From: Candidatus Borrarchaeum weybense
Lineage (GTDB): Archaea; Asgardarchaeota; Sifarchaeia; Borrarchaeales; Borrarchaeaceae
Direction: 5' to 3'
Length of the DNA: 64,000 nt
NCBI GenBank assembly: GCA_019057385.1
Contig: JAHQJS010000005.1
Location: 96,001-160,000, forward strand
Shown here one piece after another: positions 21,887 through 44,735 of the stretch (its first letter is position 1; the number at the start of each line of letters is the position of its first letter). The position numbers and the translations under genes were made by a program. Under the pieces are notes generated by a model, which did not search any database, was not told the origin of the DNA, and worked only from the letters and a program-made list of their open reading frames with translations.

Positions 21887-21903
21887 TTATAAAAACCTTT
21901 TTC
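21887..21903 (-). promoter_or_regulatory. BRE/TATA promoter for Trp leader-trpB2
   Basis: GAAAAAGGTTTTTATAA on the minus strand. Confidence 0.6.
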
Positions 21904-21951
21904 CGGGCAGGGTGGTTTAGCTTCAAGACTGAGAGAAAAGAAAAGACATTT

Positions 21952-21988
21952 TGTTAAAGCAAATCCCATTGGCGCAATCAAACCACCT
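21952..21988 (-). repeat. Motif B, copy 1 (similar to 23672-23709)
   Basis: + strand TGTTAAAGCAA..CC(A/G)TTGGCGCAATCAAA..CC(A/G)CCT at both sites. Confidence 0.85.
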
Positions 21989-22035
21989 AATCTGCCTATT
22001 TCTTTAGGCTTGTTATTTAAATCTTTCTCTGTTTT

Positions 22036-22183
22036 ATTACATTTTTCGTCCCCTGCGAGTCATCCATTCCCAACAATTGAGGCGTCGGACCTCTGAATTG
22101 GTTCAGTCTCATGCACAAGAACGTGTCCCACGTGATATACGAGGAACATACCGCCTTGTAACTCATGTATTCTCTTTCAAAGA
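22036..22183 (-). ncRNA. Long structured repeat, copy 1 (candidate guide-RNA scaffold)
   Basis: 139/148 identical to 23447-23594; own TATA upstream; nested hairpins on the minus strand. Confidence 0.65.
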
Positions 22184-22186
22184 TTC

Positions 22187-22194
22187 TATATAAA
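22187..22194 (-). promoter_or_regulatory. TATA box for repeat copy 1
   Basis: TTTATATA; predicted start site ~22166. Confidence 0.55.
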
Positions 22195-22351
22195 CACCGC
22201 GATTCTGCTAAACCAACTTTTTCTTACCACTTTTCGATCCTGAAAGCAAAGCAGAGCTGAGTTTTCTACAGCTTATTTTTATCCCTCATTAAGTTGCTTC
22301 CTGAAAAAACGAATTTTTACTGCCACTCCTCTCGAAAACAATTTAACGTTG

Positions 22352-22534
22352 TCACTTCTGTCGATTTTGCATCGCTCCCCACCTTGAAGATTTCTTCCTG
22401 TTCGTCAAATTTAACTCATGATGTTCCGCTAGGAGCCGATACAAGTTGTAACGTGGCAATAAAAAGTTGCATTCGAGGCAACAAAATGTTGTTTTAACAG
22501 ATTCAATACAATGATCCATTCTTGTCATGTTCAC
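22352..22534 (-). CDS. Small putative Zn-finger protein coupled to the Cas5-HD gene
   Basis: Overlaps the upstream stop (GTGA); CLEC..HH. Confidence 0.35.
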   Translation of the reverse strand: MNMTRMDHCIESVKTTFCCLECNFLLPRYNLYRLLAEHHELNLTNRKKSSRWGAMQNRQK

Positions 22535-23343
22535 AAACCACTATTCAAGTCGTCAAGATAGAGATTTACCATTAATAAGAGATGATTTTTCAAAGACGAA
22601 AACCCAAATTTTAACGCTTCGTTGATCTTATCAAGTGCTTGACATTTTCGAATAAAAGTATAAAGGGCATACGGGGAATATTGGCACTTTTCTATCTCTC
22701 TTTTTAATGCATCGAAATTTATCTTTTCTAGTTCAGTCACACGATAACGCGTGAACGCAGACCATCTAAATTTTCGAGAAATCATTGCAGAAAGTCTATC
22801 ATAATACTGAAGAAGAGGGAGAAGAGGCAATTCAGCCTCATCTGTATCATAGTTGTGGTGATTTTCCACAAACTTACGGACTTCTTCATCAAGTATATTA
22901 ACTTCAGAGTAGATTTTGCTCTGATGTCGATTAGTGTGTACGAAATCATGTAGTAACATAGCTATAACTAATGTTTCTTGCACGTTGGAGAGTTTAGGGA
23001 GTTTTTTACGGATCTTAATTGTTCTTGAAATATAGAGCGGATTTTTTTTGAGTTTACTAACAGAAGTCCATAAGATTTGCCCCATCCCTTCACATGTATA
23101 ACTCCCAACACTGTCAATGGCGAGCGCTTCTTCAAGTTTATATTCTGGAACGATGAACTCAACATTTCCATACCATGCCCTAAAGGTCATAGGCGCACGT
23201 CTTTGCCCTACAGTCAATTTTCCGAATACCCTAGGACGACCATTTATGGTCATCGCTCCAATATCGGCAATTCCAAAATGCCTGCGCCTTGAAACGATAG
23301 GAGTTTTTGTATAACCCATTAATTTAAAGTATTTTTGTGACAT
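22531..23343 (-). CDS. RAMP (Cas5-like)-HD nuclease fusion
   Basis: N-terminal YFKLMGYTKTPI strand and G-rich loop VGSYTCEGMGQI; HD motifs LLHD..HH..YDRLSA with C-terminal SLKNH (Cas10-type permuted order); GAGGGG SD. Confidence 0.75.
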   Translation of the reverse strand: MSQKYFKLMGYTKTPIVSRRRHFGIADIGAMTINGRPRVFGKLTVGQRRAPMTFRAWYGNVEFIVPEYKLEEALAIDSVGSYTCEGMGQILWTSVSKLKKNPLYISRTIKIRKKLPKLSNVQETLVIAMLLHDFVHTNRHQSKIYSEVNILDEEVRKFVENHHNYDTDEAELPLLPLLQYYDRLSAMISRKFRWSAFTRYRVTELEKINFDALKREIEKCQYSPYALYTFIRKCQALDKINEALKFGFSSLKNHLLLMVNLYLDDLNSGL

Positions 23344-23365
23344 TTAATCCCCTCTTTTTAGGTCT

Positions 23366-23396
23366 TATCTCCTCTTGAAACAAAAGAGAGGAGATA
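23366..23396 (-). other. Perfect 10-bp hairpin closing the copy-2 variable segment
   Basis: TATCTCCTCT-N11-AGAGGAGATA. Confidence 0.7.
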
Positions 23397-23397
23397 C

Positions 23398-23446
23398 AAA
23401 CCTTGCCAAAGTAAACGCTTTTGCAACTTTTATTAGTAAAGTGGGT
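23398..23446 (-). other. Variable segment after repeat copy 2: putative guide matching the cas7 promoter (24727-24776)
   Basis: 35/40 ungapped match with mismatches at positions 1, 6, 24, 30, 36, then 9 more matches after a 1-nt gap. Confidence 0.7.
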
Positions 23447-23594
23447 ATGACATTTATCGTTCCTTGCGAGTCATCCTTCCCCAACAATTGAGGCGTCGGA
23501 CCTCTAAATTGGTTCAGTCTCATGCACAAGAACGTGTCCCACGTGATATACGAGGAACATACCGCCTTGTAACTCATGCATTCTCTTCCAAAGA
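23447..23594 (-). ncRNA. Long structured repeat, copy 2
   Basis: Near-identical to copy 1; AT-rich TATA-like sequence upstream (~23600-23612). Confidence 0.65.
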
Positions 23595-23671
23595 GATACT
23601 ATTATTAATATAGTACACGTACAGGCGTCAAGAAGGAAGGAGAGGATTAACCTCTCCCTAAAGTAGGACGG

Positions 23672-23709
23672 TGTTAAAGCAACATCCGTTGGCGCAATCA
23701 AAACCGCCT
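23672..23709 (-). repeat. Motif B, copy 2 (within the variable segment after repeat copy 3)
   Basis: Matches 21952-21988; associated stem TACAGGCG (23620-23627)/CGCCTGTA (23705-23712). Confidence 0.85.
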
Positions 23710-23717
23710 GTATTTTG

Positions 23718-23845
23718 ATGACATTTTTCGTCCCCTGCGAGTCATCCTTCCCCAACAATTGAGGCGTCGGACCTCTAAATTGGTTCAGTCTCATGCACAT
23801 GAACGTATCACTCACAAAAGTAAGTGATAGTCCGTTATGAGATGA
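23718..23845 (-). ncRNA. Long structured repeat, copy 3 (core 23718-23806; 5' part structurally equivalent but different in sequence)
   Basis: 85/89 identical to the copy-2 core; replacement hairpin at 23806-23829. Confidence 0.65.
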
Positions 23846-23868
23846 GAAAAAAGAATGAGATGGAGTTA

Positions 23869-24687
23869 TCATGCAGTCACCGTTTCTTCGTTTTGTTCGT
23901 TTTGTTCGCTAAAATTCAAAGAATCCCTCCAATCCTCGATATTACTGAGAGAGATAGGTTTTTCAGTTGCTTTTTCGACAATTTTATAATTTCCTTTGTT
24001 ATCTTCCGCGACATTGCGAGTAGTTTCGATCTTCTGGAGGTCGAAATTGAAAATCGTGACGCGACCATAACCACTCGCTCGTCCTGCGCCCAGAATCTCA
24101 ACATATAATAGCGATTCCATGAGAAACTTGATTTCTGTATTCGTTAATTTGGTCACATCAATGTAAAAACTGAAATAGCCGCTGAAATAACTCTCCCTAA
24201 AATCTTGGATAGCTATACCATCATAGGTGAGCGCAATTCTGTTTTCACTAGCGATATGGACTTTTTGGACTGGAACTTCAGTTAAGTATTCTTTATGTTT
24301 GATTGAGGCAATAGGATCTGCTAACACATTAATAGAAGATTTCTCGCCAAATGCACCAAAGATTTTTCGCAGAATGCAGGGAGGATCACATGTACCAAGT
24401 GCATGAAAACCAGAAGGGATGAGTCCAGTGCCATCTTTGAATGTCTCCTTTTCACTGGTATGACATACCTCGATACCGCACTCCTGAGCGAGCGCCATAC
24501 AGGCATGTCTTAGCATCCCTCGAATACCTTTGATATAATAGAATTTAGTGTTGAAGGTTTTGTCTCCATTCACATACGGAAGTTCTCCTAACAAAAGCAT
24601 GGTCGAATTTTTTTGAATCGAGGCATTAAGAGGCTTAGCAATAGGGGTAAAAGCATGAACCACTAACTGTTTTTTGATTTTTCTCAT
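23869..24687 (-). CDS. cas7: Cas7-group RAMP protein (Csm3/Csf2-like)
   Basis: AFTPI, KGIRGMLRH helix, Cys cluster C..C..C-ILRKIFG, ENRI thumb, C-terminal LGAGRASGYGRV G-rich loop. Confidence 0.85.
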   Translation of the reverse strand: MRKIKKQLVVHAFTPIAKPLNASIQKNSTMLLLGELPYVNGDKTFNTKFYYIKGIRGMLRHACMALAQECGIEVCHTSEKETFKDGTGLIPSGFHALGTCDPPCILRKIFGAFGEKSSINVLADPIASIKHKEYLTEVPVQKVHIASENRIALTYDGIAIQDFRESYFSGYFSFYIDVTKLTNTEIKFLMESLLYVEILGAGRASGYGRVTIFNFDLQKIETTRNVAEDNKGNYKIVEKATEKPISLSNIEDWRDSLNFSEQNEQNEETVTA

Positions 24688-24721: not shown

Positions 24722-24776
24722 TATATAAACCTTGCTCAAAATAAACACTTTTCCAACTTTTATTAGTAAATTGGGG
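24722..24776 (-). promoter_or_regulatory. cas7 promoter (AAGGTTTATATA) and putative protospacer
   Basis: TATA at 24722-24729; upstream sequence duplicated at 23398-23446. Confidence 0.7.
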
Positions 24777-25033: not shown

Positions 25034-28000
25034 TTAGGGTAAAAGATCCTTTACAGCAACTGGAGGACCTTTTTTCGGTGGTTTATAGATGCCTTCCAGA
25101 TGTTGAAACCGCTCATACATCAAGTGGAGAGTTTCCTTATCTGGAGCGTAGATAAAGGGGACAAAGCGCTTTTTTTCCAACAAAAAACCCTTGAGTTGTA
25201 GTGCGCACCGCCTTATAGCTTCCTTTACTGTCATATATTCTTCTAGATAGTATACCTTTTGAGCGAGTATGTTGTTAACCAATCTCTCAACTTTGTAGTG
25301 TCCATTCCAGTTAAGATGATAGAATCGTTCACGCTCTAGTGTTTTACGTCGAATGAAATCAGTTTTCGCAAATTTATCATGTATACATGCAAAGATGAAG
25401 GCGAACCTGAACAGGGGAAGAAACACCTCTCGGAAGTCAACAACAGTGCCAAGAAAAGATCTTTGTTTTTTCTTATAATGCAATATCAGTTCGTTGGGTA
25501 CCCAGGAGAACCCTGCCTCAGCGAGTGCTTTTCGACAGTAAAAGTTAAGGTGTCGATAGACAGCATTGAGTGCAGCACTAAAGGGAGTTCGCGCCTTTGC
25601 TTCCCCCAGAAGCACCACTGTGGCAATATAGCGGTCGAGGGTACGACTGATGATTTCAAAATAACTGCCCTGAAGCAAATGCTTGGGAACCTCCCAGGCA
25701 ATGCTTTCCACTACGCCTTCAAGACCGCGAAGGTTGTCAATATTGCCCCGCCAATAGAGAAACGTATACGCCACGCGATCCAGTAGTTGGGATAAGAATT
25801 CCTGTGCCTCTGCAGGAGATAATAATCCCTCTTTTTCAAAATGGAGAATTGCATTGGCGAGTCCCATATTTTTACTCATCACCAGCAACCTCGCTAATAA
25901 CTTGCCTCGTTCCGTCTCTCTGAGTTGCTGGGCGGCGTGTTTCAGTTCATCGGCTAATTGTTGTTTCTCGGGTGTCAGTGTATGCTCTACAAAGAATCTG
26001 CCTTCGGGCGAATTAATATCAATGAGTTTTTTACCATAGTTCTTACGAACCTGTTGCGTAACTTCTCCACCCTCGATGATGATGTGACGGATAGCACCGA
26101 TTAAATATCGCTGTGTTGTTTTCCCGTCCTTTAAGGAATGAGTAAATCGTTTTTTCTTAATATCAAGCTGTTCACCGCACTTGACACGGATGATTCGTTT
26201 TGGTCGTCGAATGTAAACCCTTGTTTTTTTAACCCGCGGGACATAATTTCCAGCCTTGCCTAAAAGCAATTCCAACCCTTTTAACATCAAACCTCGGCGG
26301 CCTGGTTTCACCACTAGGTCACCTTTCATGGTTAAATAATAGCGGGAATTGCATTCAGGACAGACGGTGTATTCGTTATAGCGTGACGGCAGTTCCACTG
26401 TACCGTCGGAGTTGCAGAAGTAGCATGGAGTATCATCAAGTGTTTCTTGTAAGACACGAATTGTGCGCTTTTTTAACTTCCGCGCTTTCGTATGATATTC
26501 GCAGGCACCCATCTTTGGTGCGACATAAGACTTTCTTGCTCGCCTTCCAACTTTTGTGTTATACTTACGATTCAACACGCAAATATGTGCACGTTTCGAT
26601 CTGCGACGGTCCTTCATGGAGTTTATCCGAAAGAAGCCACATGAGCCACAGGTGAGGCGCAGATGTTCAGGAAGACTCACATTCACATCTGCCACATAGA
26701 TTTTGGGGCGACCTCGTAACTGCCCTTGAGAGATAAACTGGATTTTTCCCTGGATTCCTAACCGCTTGACATGTTTAACTACCGTGGTGTAGTGAACTGG
26801 TCTTTTATATTGCTTACGAACTTTTGTCGTAATTTGTTTATAAGAAATAAGTTTATACTGTTTAATAAAGGTGTAGATTGCTTCCTGAAGTCCTGGATAT
26901 GGTTTCGGTCTATGTTTTGGATACCAGCGTCTCCTTCTGCCTTTGTTCCCTCTTTCAACTTCAGGCTCTTTGTATTCAGGATTTAGTTTTGAGGTAAGTT
27001 CTTTAGCAACCCTTGCCGCCCTCGGGTCGCTGCGCCCCAGATAGTCATAACTTGCTTCTGCGATCCATGACGCCGTCTTTCTATGTGCTTCTGCATCACC
27101 CGGTCTTATGTTTACCCGAGTTGCCGCTTCTGTGACTGAAGAACCCTGACTGAGTAACCATACGAAAGAGGTATATTGTTGGGTGGTGTATCGTGTGGTG
27201 CTGCTCACTTCATGCATGCTTCGCCCGATTAGTGTAATCACGTGCCGGGAGAATTCCCGTTCTGAGGAGCAGTGATGTGTGGCAAAAAAATTCTTGATCC
27301 TGATGGCGGTTTTAGTCGGCAGTAAAAATTGGCTGGCCCAGCGTCCTTTGGCTGTTGCACTAAACTTTCCACCATTTCTTTTGATAAAACCTTCCTTGAT
27401 AAGTGTGTGAAGGATTCCCTCTCTTTTTTTCTTCGGTTCATCCTGCTTAGGTCGAGCTAACAGTTTCTCTCTTAGTTGTTGTGTAAAGTCTTTCAACTGG
27501 TCGTGGGTGAATGGTGTCAACAGTAAGCGAAGCTCTCCATTTTTGATTCCGCGTGTAGTGGTGTTCTTCTTGACCCACATGAAGAATTTTCTCGTTACGC
27601 GTTTCAAGTCGAATGGGAGAGAGCCTTCGTGCGTTTCGCGCAATAAGGAGAGTAAATGAAGTTCGTTATTGAGCCAGCAAAGCTCCTCCTCATGAGTCAA
27701 GAGTGCGGTATTCATTAGTTCGGACCAATTCTGTAGCAACGCTTTGTGTTGATGCCAGAAGTAATGTCTTTCAAGTTTGAGGAGCAATTGTTTCGTGGAT
27801 ACCGAGCCTCTAGCTATCAGGGTGAGTACAATATCTGCCAAAGAAGAACGAGCTTGGCTTACTATACGATGTTCTTTGACTATCAATTGTCCTTCAACGA
27901 TTTGAATATCCTTTTGCTTCAAAATCTCTTGGTCGTCCCCCACGAAGATCAGATCGGCATAGCCCACCCGATGATGGCGCGGTCGTGCCGCCCTGCCGCT

Positions 28001-29125
28001 CAATTGTATCAACAGTTGAGAGCTGAACATTCCTGCATCGGCAATTATCACCCTTTTGATCGGAAAGTCCACCCCCTCTCCGTATTGAGTCGTTGATAAA
28101 AAGACCTGAAATTCACCCTTCTTAAGTTTTCTCATAGCTTTTTGTTGTTTCTCTTTACTGAGCCCAGCATGGCTGTAGCCAACGGTTAGATTGAGCCCAA
28201 AACTCTTTAGAAAGGTCTGCAATTCTTCAGCGCGTTGTTCAACCTGATTTCGTGTGTAGCAAAAGATATGCACGATTTTAGTCCGCTGATCATCGCCATA
28301 TGAGTGTAGTTCAAAGGTCTTTTTGATCAAGCGAGCGAACAGAAAGCGCTTTTTTCGTTCGATCTGCTCTATTGTGCTGCCTGAAACTCCAAAAGACGAT
28401 ACAATAAGTTTCGACCGCCGTTCTTTGGTATGGATAAGTTGAGCATCGAGCCAGCTTGCCAGTTCCTCAGCATTCCCCAAAGTAGCCGAGAGATAGATGA
28501 TGTGAGGACGAGGTCGCAACCACGCTTTCGCATTGACAATCGCGGTTTCTAGACACGTACCCCGCCCTTTGTTACCCAGATTATGCAGTTCATCGACTAC
28601 AATTAATCCTATCCTGTCTAAAAACGGATACTCGAAATGTTTGGCTAGCAGCCCATTGAAGGATTCGTAGGTGATGATGAGGATATCCGCAGTTTCAAGC
28701 TCTTCAGGAGACGGTCGGTTATCTCCGCTGACCCGGAGGATGGTGCAGATGTCGTGATACCACTCTTTGAACCTGTCATACATCTGATCGATCAGCCGTT
28801 TGGTCGGCTCAAGGATCACACAGCGCATCCCTTTTCCAAGGATGCGGGTGGACACTATTTGGGCGATCAAGGTTTTTCCAGAAGCGGTGGGAGTGTATAA
28901 CACTTTGTCATGTCTTTGCTTACCAGAAAAGCATGCCTCCCATTGAAAGTCATAGAGAAGTTTAATGTCAGCCTGTTCCAATTGTTGACGTATAAATTCG
29001 TAGTTTAACCCTCTTTTCGTCATTGTAAGGAACTGTCCCCTCAATCCCTGTGTCTCACTTATGATGGTTGAAAAGTTCTTTATAAAGAGGGCAAACCTTT
29101 GGATCACTGGCTTGATAACTGTCAC
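25034..29125 (-). CDS. SF2 (Ski2/Hel308-like) helicase - wHTH - Zn finger - Cas1 fusion
   Basis: PTASGKT, DELH, SAT, QLSGRAARP; CGSC/CYFC/CPEC; Cas1 motifs LRGLEG..W, PFSAALNAVYRHL, ILH, DFREVF; GAGGGG SD before GTG. Confidence 0.85.
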   Translation of the reverse strand: MTVIKPVIQRFALFIKNFSTIISETQGLRGQFLTMTKRGLNYEFIRQQLEQADIKLLYDFQWEACFSGKQRHDKVLYTPTASGKTLIAQIVSTRILGKGMRCVILEPTKRLIDQMYDRFKEWYHDICTILRVSGDNRPSPEELETADILIITYESFNGLLAKHFEYPFLDRIGLIVVDELHNLGNKGRGTCLETAIVNAKAWLRPRPHIIYLSATLGNAEELASWLDAQLIHTKERRSKLIVSSFGVSGSTIEQIERKKRFLFARLIKKTFELHSYGDDQRTKIVHIFCYTRNQVEQRAEELQTFLKSFGLNLTVGYSHAGLSKEKQQKAMRKLKKGEFQVFLSTTQYGEGVDFPIKRVIIADAGMFSSQLLIQLSGRAARPRHHRVGYADLIFVGDDQEILKQKDIQIVEGQLIVKEHRIVSQARSSLADIVLTLIARGSVSTKQLLLKLERHYFWHQHKALLQNWSELMNTALLTHEEELCWLNNELHLLSLLRETHEGSLPFDLKRVTRKFFMWVKKNTTTRGIKNGELRLLLTPFTHDQLKDFTQQLREKLLARPKQDEPKKKREGILHTLIKEGFIKRNGGKFSATAKGRWASQFLLPTKTAIRIKNFFATHHCSSEREFSRHVITLIGRSMHEVSSTTRYTTQQYTSFVWLLSQGSSVTEAATRVNIRPGDAEAHRKTASWIAEASYDYLGRSDPRAARVAKELTSKLNPEYKEPEVERGNKGRRRRWYPKHRPKPYPGLQEAIYTFIKQYKLISYKQITTKVRKQYKRPVHYTTVVKHVKRLGIQGKIQFISQGQLRGRPKIYVADVNVSLPEHLRLTCGSCGFFRINSMKDRRRSKRAHICVLNRKYNTKVGRRARKSYVAPKMGACEYHTKARKLKKRTIRVLQETLDDTPCYFCNSDGTVELPSRYNEYTVCPECNSRYYLTMKGDLVVKPGRRGLMLKGLELLLGKAGNYVPRVKKTRVYIRRPKRIIRVKCGEQLDIKKKRFTHSLKDGKTTQRYLIGAIRHIIIEGGEVTQQVRKNYGKKLIDINSPEGRFFVEHTLTPEKQQLADELKHAAQQLRETERGKLLARLLVMSKNMGLANAILHFEKEGLLSPAEAQEFLSQLLDRVAYTFLYWRGNIDNLRGLEGVVESIAWEVPKHLLQGSYFEIISRTLDRYIATVVLLGEAKARTPFSAALNAVYRHLNFYCRKALAEAGFSWVPNELILHYKKKQRSFLGTVVDFREVFLPLFRFAFIFACIHDKFAKTDFIRRKTLERERFYHLNWNGHYKVERLVNNILAQKVYYLEEYMTVKEAIRRCALQLKGFLLEKKRFVPFIYAPDKETLHLMYERFQHLEGIYKPPKKGPPVAVKDLLP

Positions 29126-43536: not shown

Positions 43537-44511
43537 ATGAGCCCCTTCGTCTCTATCCTTGTTCCTTGCTTAAACGAAGAAAATACTTTGCGTTCTCTTA
43601 CAGGACGTGTTGAAAAGACTCTTGCTGGACTACAAAATATTCAATGCGAACTTATCTTTATAGATGATGGAAGTACAGACGAAACGGGGTCAATAATTGA
43701 TCAATTAAGTCAAGAAATTCCATGGGTGAAGGCATATCATCATTCAACAACAAAAGGAAAATCTGCAGCCATAATGAACGGTTTTTACCATTCTAAAGGA
43801 AATATCATAATTCTATTAGATGCAGATCTGCAATTCTTTCCTGAAGACATTCCAGCAATCCTTTCAGAAATGACTCAGAAAAAATTAGATATTGTTAATG
43901 GCTGGAGAAAGGAGCGAAAAGATCCTTTGTCCAGAAGGGCTGCATCTCGTCTCTATAATTCCTTTGCAAGTTCTCTCTTCGGACTAAAGGTTCATGATTA
44001 TAACTGTGGGATCAAAGGTCTAAAACGGGAGGTATTAGAATCCTTCAGATTAAGAAAAGGATATCATCGTTATATACTGGCCCTTGCAAAGCATCACGGG
44101 TTTCGTATAGGCGAAGTAGTAGTTCAACATGCCCCTCGCCCGTATGGAAAGTCTAGATACCGAACTAGTCGACTATTTGCAGGATTTGTGGATTTGATGA
44201 GTTTAAAACTTCAATTCATGTTTATGGAGCGCCCCATGTCACTGTTTGGCGTGCTTGGCGCATTTATCTTCCTCCTCGGTCTTATTTCTGGAGCTTATCT
44301 TGTATATCTTTGGTTTCTTGAAGGCGGTATTGGTACACGACCACTTCTCTTCCTTACAGTCCTCTTACTTGTTGCAGGCATTCAGTTTTTCTCATTTGGA
44401 TTTTTAGCTGACGCAATTGCATCTTTAAAAACAGACGTTGATTATCTTAATCAATTAGTCATACAGAGGAAAGAAGAAAACACAAAAGGTCAATCACCCC
44501 CTAACAAGTGA
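43537..44511 (+). CDS. GT2 polyprenol-phosphate glycosyltransferase (ArnC/DPM-like)
   Basis: PCLNEE, DDGSTD, DADLQ, two C-terminal TM helices; last codons supplied by the inserted element. Confidence 0.92.
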   Translation: MSPFVSILVPCLNEENTLRSLTGRVEKTLAGLQNIQCELIFIDDGSTDETGSIIDQLSQEIPWVKAYHHSTTKGKSAAIMNGFYHSKGNIIILLDADLQFFPEDIPAILSEMTQKKLDIVNGWRKERKDPLSRRAASRLYNSFASSLFGLKVHDYNCGIKGLKREVLESFRLRKGYHRYILALAKHHGFRIGEVVVQHAPRPYGKSRYRTSRLFAGFVDLMSLKLQFMFMERPMSLFGVLGAFIFLLGLISGAYLVYLWFLEGGIGTRPLLFLTVLLLVAGIQFFSFGFLADAIASLKTDVDYLNQLVIQRKEENTKGQSPPNK

Positions 44512-44735
44512 GGGGGCTTGTTCCGTGAGGAACAAGAGTAATTGGTTGATTAGCCTAAGAGAGGTCGTGGTGGAACACACATGACGGTATCTACGTTATC
44601 AGGAGAGTTAAAGAACACACCAAGGGATGCTTCTCTAGTCCCGTGCTCTGTAAACGGTGGTTTAAACAGAGAGGAAACTCTCAGTGATCATCGTAGAGTA
44701 CTGACTGATAACCTTGGCGAAGAGAACCTACTCCC
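44489..44735 (+). ncRNA. omegaRNA/HEARO-like scaffold
   Basis: GTCAATCACCCC..GTTGATTAGCCTAAG..CTACGTTATCAG..GGGATGCTTCTCTAGTCCC..CTCTG..TTAAACAG..CAGTG..CTGATAACCTTGGCGAAGAGAAC, the motif order I recognise from HEARO/omegaRNAs. Confidence 0.8.

Follow-up and report, generated by a model that had tools for sequence, protein, structure and literature searches.

The minus strand of a 64,000-nucleotide (nt) stretch of the Candidatus Borrarchaeum weybense genome (contig JAHQJS010000005.1, positions 96001 to 160000; hereafter the window, to which positions without a prefix refer) carries a cassette of CRISPR-related genes, interspersed with three copies of a long repeat. This analysis concerns that repeat, and in particular the 5′ part of the two copies lying between positions 23447 and 23845. 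In minus-strand order, the locus consists of a helicase-Cas1 gene, a cas7-like RAMP gene, repeat copy 3, copy 2, a gene of 270 amino acids (aa), and copy 1. The first gene (25034..29125) encodes a 1363-aa fusion of a Hel308-like helicase to Cas1, as indicated by the Pfam families DEAD, Helicase_C and Cas_Cas1 and by NCBIfam. The cas7-like gene (23869..24687; 272 aa) matches Pfam RAMPs (E = 1.5e-7). The 270-aa protein (22531..23343), here called RAMP-HD, is predicted to join a small RAMP domain to a Cas10-type HD domain. Structure searches with its AlphaFold2 model (predicted local distance difference test, 87) match residues 119-270 to the HD domain of Csm1 (6ifk_A, Z 8.3) and residues 1-104 to Cas5- and Cas6-type RAMPs at Z scores of 6-7.6, at which Cas5 and Cas6 are not distinguishable. 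Foldseek against the PDB returned only weak matches for this protein, the best having E = 0.0086.

These genes place the locus in ARAMP, an array-less CRISPR derivative of Asgard hosts that was described by Makarova et al. (2020, CRISPR J), as cited in the passages of PMC8730458 and PMC12669027 that treat it. According to these passages, ARAMP comprises diverged Cas7 and Cas5 homologues, a nuclease domain and usually a distinct Cas1, and has no array. The 2022 review calls its mechanism enigmatic (PMC8730458), and the 2025 CRISPR classification lists it, together with its haloarchaeal cousin HRAMP, as array-less (PMC12669027). The present locus has each of these components: a cas7-like RAMP and a Cas1 by Pfam (RAMPs, Cas_Cas1), a second RAMP fused to a Cas10-type HD nuclease domain by fold, a distinct Cas1, here fused to a helicase, no array, and an Asgard host, Candidatus Borrarchaeum. 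A Pfam search of the window proteins found no Cas6 at the locus. The only Cas6 in the genome by PF10040 (58.8 bits) lies on contig C4 (C4:161793-162149), beside a conventional CRISPR array whose 37-nt repeat recurs with a period of ~75 nt (L186:40-2131, equivalent to G000 C4:150039-152130). Cas-like genes adjoin that array, Cas6 among them (L186:11752-12582), and the nearest ARAMP cassette is ~190 kb away.

The three window repeats can be aligned over ~125-150 nt. Their 3′ 90 nt are nearly identical, and copy 3 diverges from copies 1 and 2 over the 5′ 45 nt. From start to start they are 271 and 1411 nt apart, and the longer interval contains a gene. With a unit of ~125-150 nt, irregular spacing and mostly solitary copies elsewhere, the family does not have the properties of a CRISPR array or CRISPR repeat, in which direct repeats of ~23-50 nt alternate regularly with spacers of about their own size. 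Read on the minus strand, each copy begins with a 5′ module in which a lower stem (P1) encloses a three-base bulge and a hairpin (P2), followed by a second hairpin and a tail. Copy 3 (23718..23839) has its module at 23798..23839, made up of the P1 5′ strand (23833-23839), the bulge GAC (23830-23832), a P2 hairpin of 24 nt (23806-23829) and the P1 3′ strand (23798-23805). The module of copy 2 (23447..23570) occupies 23526..23570, with the P1 5′ strand at 23563-23570, the bulge GTA at 23560-23562, a 25-nt P2 hairpin at 23535-23559 and the P1 3′ strand at 23526-23534. Copy 1 (22036..22159) has the same module as copy 2, at 22115-22159. The second hairpin lies at 23756..23782 in copy 3 (inner stem and loop, 23761-23775), at 23485-23511 in copy 2 and at 22074-22100 in copy 1. 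Copy 3 belongs to class A, the scaffold copies that directly follow a cas7-like gene and have a T-rich 5′ flank; copy 2 is of the class B sequence type.

The repeat is part of a large family, with ~150 copies overall of a scaffold of ~125 nt. BLAST against the whole genome located 22 copies at 13 places. We then used a covariance model (R1) built with only the two hairpins as structure, to avoid prejudging the lower stem; alignments made with it are biased towards those two hairpins, and not towards P1, the stem that competes with it or the pseudoknot described below. Copies 1, 2 and 3 match this model at 156.1, 153.7 and 140.5 bits, respectively, and the model finds 27-29 matches in the whole genome. 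Four genomes of the same genus gave 9, 3, 6 and 22 matches, and a 2-Mb genome from one further genus of the same class gave 33, while the 55 other genomes of the phylum that were searched with the model contained no scaffold match. Metagenome contigs sharing an 18-nt core word added 62 scaffold copies. The scaffold core was unmatched in viral contigs, and three sediment DNA runs yielded only short contigs with mixed paralogues, which were uninformative on the fold.

Linkage to ARAMP genes is tight. In its own genome, 21 of 25 strong copies adjoin a cas7-like or RAMP-HD gene, and the remaining four sit away from any ARAMP gene. There are ~10 paralogous cassettes in this genome (ten cas7-like paralogues), ordered as cas7-like gene, scaffold, 270-aa gene, scaffold, six of them with a helicase-Cas1 gene, and every Borrarchaeia cassette examined bears one to three scaffold copies. 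At the Heimdall-type ARAMP loci L113 to L116 and at a divergent gene pair, L183, no scaffold was detected at E values up to 1 or 10 with filters off, so that it may be absent there or too diverged for detection. The L183 pair (L183:3631-5275; G000 C5:80630-82274) consists of divergent cas7-like and RAMP-HD genes (phmmer E = 7e-60 and 8e-40), and no scaffold RNA was detectable within 10 kb of it. Copies are also sometimes closely packed. The most array-like layout seen is on a 29283-nt contig of Ca. Borrarchaeum yapensis, where four copies lie within 1.8 kb (L089:1295-3033), three of them only 85-118 nt apart. In genome G001, pairs of copies stand 18-25 nt apart (L098:1485-1625/1644-1784 and L096:1350-1497/1182-1324); between them lies a TATA-like box but nothing as long as a guide, which leaves the upstream copy of each pair no room for a guide of the kind considered below.

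Hairpin P2 is the best supported part of the fold. An earlier note on this DNA, made from the letters of the window, had drawn the 5′ module as one structure conserved across unrelated sequences. Every string that it quoted was found where it had been placed on the minus strand, and the P2 hairpins of copies 1/2 and copy 3 indeed share only 11 of 25 aligned positions. The 24-nt hairpin of copy 3 is perfect, with a folding energy of −11.7 kcal/mol that none of 20000 shuffled sequences attains; 84 of 20000 shuffles are as stable as the hairpin of copies 1/2. Covariation in a larger alignment, on which the note had staked its proposal, is plain: across 91 copies from six genomes, nine of the ten P2 pairs have two-sided changes, with 91% of cells paired. 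The observed values are matched in none of 500 column shuffles, and pairing falls to 36-54% when the partner strand is slid by one to three columns. When all column pairs of the molecule are scanned, those of P2 are among the ones with the strongest covariation. The 78 good copies contain 69 distinct P2 sequences with a median pairwise identity of 48%, and yet 59 of them have a length of exactly 25 nt and 57 have 9-11 pairs. What is kept is its length, the closing U-A pair, a preceding CGG and the three-base bulge, in which a G is followed by A or U and then by any base. With sequence free and both length and pairing fixed, P2 is the cleanest proof that the repeat acts as RNA. It also fixes the strand, as the note had argued from G-U pairs: the hairpin shows 89 G-U pairs against 29 A-C pairs, and folding is more stable for the sense than for the antisense strand (p = 1.7e-6), which makes the structure a feature of minus-strand RNA.

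The second hairpin is also a family trait. Its GAGGU/GCCUC core, noted previously, is present in all three window copies and covaries. Four of its five inner pairs have changed on both sides, one of them being GC in 59 copies and AU in 26, and 92.6% of cells are paired. The outer stem varies in both sequence and length by sub-family (for example, CAAUU/AAUUG, CCAUC/GAUGG and CUCAUC/GAUGAG). Three loop bases of this hairpin pair with three bases of the tail, 2-4 nt before the scaffold ends, to form a pseudoknot. In copy 2, the tail GUC (23449..23451) faces the loop GAC (23495-23497), and in copy 3 the partners are 23720-23722 and 23766-23768. The pseudoknot is paired in 91.2% of cells, its middle pair occurring as GC (38), CG (26), AU (14) and GU (4), and no shuffle out of 500 reaches this value. 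It is broken in copy 1, where the tail reads GUA in place of GUC. Because the last bases before the guide pair, with covariation, to the loop of the second hairpin, the sequences argue that scaffold and guide act as one folded unit.

Most copies appear to be transcription units of their own. In copies with their own promoter, the centre of a TATA-like box most often lies 24-26 nt upstream of the first P1 base (the largest group), and 24-26 nt is the usual distance between TATA box and start site in archaea. Given this spacing, the primary transcript of most copies probably begins at P1, with no need for a 5′ cut. Copy 1 does have a TATA-like box, as had been noticed before: TTTATATA, at 22187..22194 on the minus strand, is centred 31 nt upstream of its lower stem. 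A TATA-like run precedes copy 2 at 23600-23612 on the same strand. In many promoter-driven copies, a motif ATGCTTCAA(A/T)TCATG occurs ~20 nt upstream of the TATA-like box (for example, L019:9150-9231 and L080:1440-1520), which may be a regulator site or a tiny open reading frame. At the other end, a GC-rich hairpin followed by a T-rich run sits 50-80 nt past copies 2 and 3, and similar hairpins are found past many copies at other loci. By our reading of the minus strand, these elements lie at 23367-23395, after copy 2, and at 23639..23658, after the 3′ extension of copy 3, and they are the probable 3′ ends of the RNAs. No RNA sequencing run is listed as containing this DNA.

The 40-50 nt that follow the scaffold differ between copies, except in those preceding the 270-aa gene, and it is in this latter class that their nature becomes apparent. 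Seven paralogous loci have a 3′ flank that matches the sequence lying 36-90 nt upstream of their own cas7-like start codon, TATA-like box included, with mismatches at positions 6, 12, 18 and so on to 48, counted from the first base past the scaffold. In the window, the extension of copy 2 (23399..23446, minus strand) matches a site at 24723..24775 on the same strand, 36-88 nt upstream of the cas7-like ATG and including the TATA-like TTTATAT; its mismatches fall at positions 6, 24, 30 and 36, and the six further paralogous loci show a like pattern. In an ungapped comparison over 42 nt, five or six of the seven sixth positions differ at six of the seven loci and two of seven at the seventh, against 1-4 mismatches among the 35 other positions. 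When the paralogous guides are compared with one another, no six-base rhythm is seen. The flank thus has target complementarity broken at every sixth position, as is found in guides bound by Cas7. This rhythm is a known mark of such guides, and it occurs in the cr-like RNAs that repress cas promoters (PMC10120712; 10.1101/2023.03.10.532045). Guide and gene share the same sense, so that the predicted pairing partner is the template strand of the DNA rather than the mRNA. When the genome was searched for targets of the remaining 3′ flanks, over 42 nt, disregarding sixth positions and allowing up to eight mismatches, only the promoter-matching class gave hits. The opening 29 nt of the copy 1 and copy 3 flanks, with any base allowed at sixth positions, were not matched by viral contigs. 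Part of the copy 3 flank (23672-23702) does recur at 21952-21982, ~55-85 nt downstream of copy 1, with 87% identity over 31 nt; in a gapped alignment, the differences lie at flank positions 12, 18 and 30. This likeness may reflect a second self-directed guide or a match at an insertion site.

Taken as a whole, the evidence leads us to regard the stretch as probably the 5′ domain of a ~125-nt non-coding scaffold RNA of Borrarchaeia ARAMP cassettes, with a variable guide following it. That the repeat gives rise to a functional structured RNA is strongly supported by compensatory changes, strand-specific G-U pairs, the lack of a conserved reading frame, ~150 copies and linkage to ARAMP genes. The match of the flank to its own cas7-like promoter at seven loci, except at every sixth base, makes the scaffold of a single-guide RNA the most likely identity of the repeat. 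In most copies, a TATA box of its own would start the RNA at P1, and the RNA would run through P1, the three-base bulge, P2 and an invariant single-stranded stretch into the second hairpin with its loop-tail pseudoknot. The 40-50 nt beyond would then form the guide, coated by the cas7-like protein, while the RAMP-HD protein would hold the junction. The free sequence and fixed length of P2, together with its closing U-A, the CGG and the G-led bulge, suggest recognition by shape or protection of the 5′ end. P1 and P2 may thus serve as a shape-specific handle for protein docking, or protect a (triphosphate) 5′ end, rather than act as a cleavage signal.

Support for the lower stem is uneven. P1 consists of 8-9 pairs, interrupted by a mismatch or a bulge of one base. 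In copies 1 and 2, the minimum free energy fold of the 45-nt module (−15.4 kcal/mol) is identical to the previous drawing, with eight lower pairs, one bulged U, the three-base 5′ bulge and the 25-nt hairpin, and the P1 duplex alone (−6.5 kcal/mol) is equalled by 3% of random 11-mers. The drawing fares less well for copy 3, where the drawn fold (−14.7 kcal/mol) loses to one in which the hairpin is lengthened with GGAC/GUUC (−17.0 kcal/mol). Evidence for P1 is scarcer because its 3′ strand is almost invariant. Matched changes on both strands occur in window copy 3, L016:8193 and L058:5687, copy 3 having a T-to-A change in the 3′ strand offset by an A-to-T change in the 5′ strand. In L105 and L089:2400, a U-to-C change converts a G-U pair to G-C. 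A variant lineage (L175:6214 and L097:1826) has nine new P1 pairs, CCAAAGAGC with GCUCUUUGG, and an unchanged 3′ purine run.

Several observations weigh against the proposed scaffold, most of them touching its 5′ module. For copy 3, the P1 duplex is worth just −2.8 kcal/mol, and a value of −3.0 is attained by 21% of random 11-mers; P1 is weak in class A copies generally, at −1.6 and −0.5 kcal/mol in the nearest relatives of copy 3. The P1 3′ strand can also pair with a purine run near the 3′ end, with 94-98% compatibility. In 24 of 78 copies, including copies 1 and 2 of the window, thermodynamics favours this competing closing stem, and RNAalifold, a check proposed in the earlier note, chose it over the drawn lower stem when run on the 22 copies from the genome; that alignment by itself cannot separate the two, and P1 may be one of two states. 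Low-scoring copies (L091, L185:2515 and L185:3741) have no P2 or lack the entire 5′ half, so that the P1/P2 module may be dispensable. The role that we give to this module is read from its anatomy. Finally, the copies are paralogues and close relatives, and the shuffle statistics therefore overstate their independence. With regard to P1, the matched strand changes, the replacement of both strands in the variant lineage and the spacing from the TATA box favour it over the competing stem, and we conclude that P1 is genuine in most copies, marginal in copy 3, and may alternate with the rival pairing. Two of the low-scoring copies, on G000 C7, are truncated (L185:3741-3805 and L185:2515-2633): one retains only the last ~40 nt, the tail with GUC, and the other has no first hairpin. 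These copies may be in decay, or else the 3′ tail may be the smallest unit that is conserved.

Of the explanations that compete with a guide scaffold, the one that survives best is that the 5′ module is a processing signal, with P1, bulge and P2 recognised by a nuclease that frees guide units from longer RNAs, or forming part of a self-cleaving fold. The earlier note had leaned this way, suggesting self-processing or the recruitment of a nuclease in place of Cas6; its structured RNA stands, and this further step found no support here. Copies between the cas7-like and RAMP-HD genes have no evident promoter of their own and would have to be freed from an operon transcript. There is no Cas6 at the locus, and the N-terminal RAMP of the 270-aa protein is as near to Cas6 as to Cas5 (Z 7.6 vs 7.0-7.4). 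Candidate nucleases would be the RAMP-HD protein, the distant Cas6 of the genome, or the archaeal splicing endonuclease acting on a bulge-helix-bulge-like junction. A three-base bulge, 3-4 pairs and an opposite one-base bulge do recall a relaxed bulge-helix-bulge, and relaxed, one-bulge substrates of splicing endonucleases exist. The strict motif, two 3-nt bulges on opposite strands of a 4-bp helix, is not present: the junction has one conserved 3-nt bulge, and 3-4 pairs away the opposite strand has a 1-nt bulge or mismatch in place of a second three-base bulge. Most copies, however, have their own TATA box at the right distance, the pseudoknot binds the tail to the scaffold, and Rfam, searched as the note had suggested, holds no ribozyme or other family that matches the repeats, either at the gathering score or at E values up to 10 over 21900-24000, although a new ribozyme class would escape such a search. 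These three points make a processing role less necessary. A hammerhead-like reading of the tail GAUGA...CGAAA was rejected, as its core bases misfit by eye and no model matches. We consider processing unlikely as a general explanation, and possible for the operon-embedded copies. Elsewhere in the window, the plus strand contains a full-length HEARO (IscB-type omega) RNA at 44489-44731 (128.7 bits vs a gathering score of 83), which is an unrelated guide-RNA scaffold.

It is improbable that the repeat is instead a cis-regulatory mRNA element of ARAMP genes, such as a stabiliser, attenuator or operator, with no guide and with a promoter-like flank that is simply a duplicated promoter. Copies do occur in untranslated regions (3′ or 5′) of the two RAMP genes, and the promoter-matching flank, which contains a TATA-like run and is situated ~55 nt upstream of the start codon of RAMP-HD, could be a promoter in its own right. 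Duplication, however, gives no reason for mismatches to be limited, in seven loci, to every sixth base from the scaffold end. Four strong copies distant from any ARAMP gene, and terminal copies whose flanks are mutually unrelated, also count against this reading. A DNA-level element, with palindromes that matter in DNA as a recognition or integration site for helicase-Cas1 or as the ends of a mobile element, is highly improbable. The many dispersed copies per genome and the Cas1 fusion at six loci are what such an element would have, but the G-U excess and the greater stability of the sense strand indicate RNA, a covarying pseudoknot is meaningless in duplex DNA, and promoter-like boxes precede the copies. 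A small protein gene has next to no chance of being correct, for although one frame is open across the three window copies (open reading frames 23365-23577 and 23504-23872) and copies 1 and 2 differ in it by five synonymous and two non-synonymous changes, a coding reading is refuted by stop codons, which interrupt 77, 70 and 34 of 78 copies, depending on the frame (34 in the frame that is open in the window), and by single-base length differences in segments of 33/34/36 nt and 29/30 nt, and the 122-aa open reading frame has no Pfam or NCBIfam match.

If the repeat is a guide scaffold, the folded RNA that accompanies every cassette of one Asgard class, guide-like tail included, would be the missing RNA partner of ARAMP, and the mechanism of the system would become testable. 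We speculate further that ARAMP could be a class-1-derived RNA-guided system in which arrays have been replaced by promoter-driven single-guide genes with a large pseudoknotted scaffold, P1, bulge and P2 docking the helicase-Cas1, and guides directing both promoter repression and Cas1-mediated insertion or homing of the cassette. We offer this scheme tentatively, as an unlikely whole. In a variant of it, the host splicing endonuclease would free operon-embedded units at the bulge-helix-bulge-like junction. To our knowledge, a promoter-driven single-guide scaffold architecture has so far been known only from class 2 effectors and their transposon ancestors. Should the effector keep the scaffold, it would be the first Cas7-type complex of several subunits known to work with a long single-guide scaffold. 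Such a complex would bear on the evolution of guide RNAs and could yield a new programmable DNA-binding module.

Several known systems offer points of comparison. For ARAMP itself, the passages of the published summaries name no RNA, whereas the Borrarchaeia cassettes carry a conserved folded one. In the CRISPR RNAs of class 1 systems (types I and III), an 8-nt 5′ repeat handle precedes a guide held on a Cas7 backbone. The RNA proposed here is alike in having its constant part 5′ of the guide, sixth-base mismatches, and partner proteins of the Cas7 and Cas5 kind. It differs in that the constant part is ~125 nt long, branched and pseudoknotted, compared with a repeat of 23-50 nt, and in that copies are stand-alone units with their own promoters. 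Trans-activating and CRISPR RNA pairs or single-guide RNAs, the right-end RNAs of TnpB and the omega RNAs of IscB have structured, pseudoknotted scaffolds of 100-200 nt with one guide. Our scaffold resembles these class 2 single units in its length, its pseudoknot and its one guide, which is 3′ as in TnpB. Its partners, in contrast, would be multi-subunit RAMP proteins and not a single RuvC nuclease, and it has no sequence or Rfam relation to them. Another parallel is with the CreR and other cr-like RNAs of degenerate mini-arrays, repressors of cas promoters, which share a guide partly complementary to their own cas promoter and mismatches at sixth positions (10.1101/2023.03.10.532045; PMC10120712). 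Those RNAs use the ordinary short repeats of a resident array and its normal effector, whereas the Borrarchaeia RNA belongs to an array-less locus and is built on a large folded constant part.

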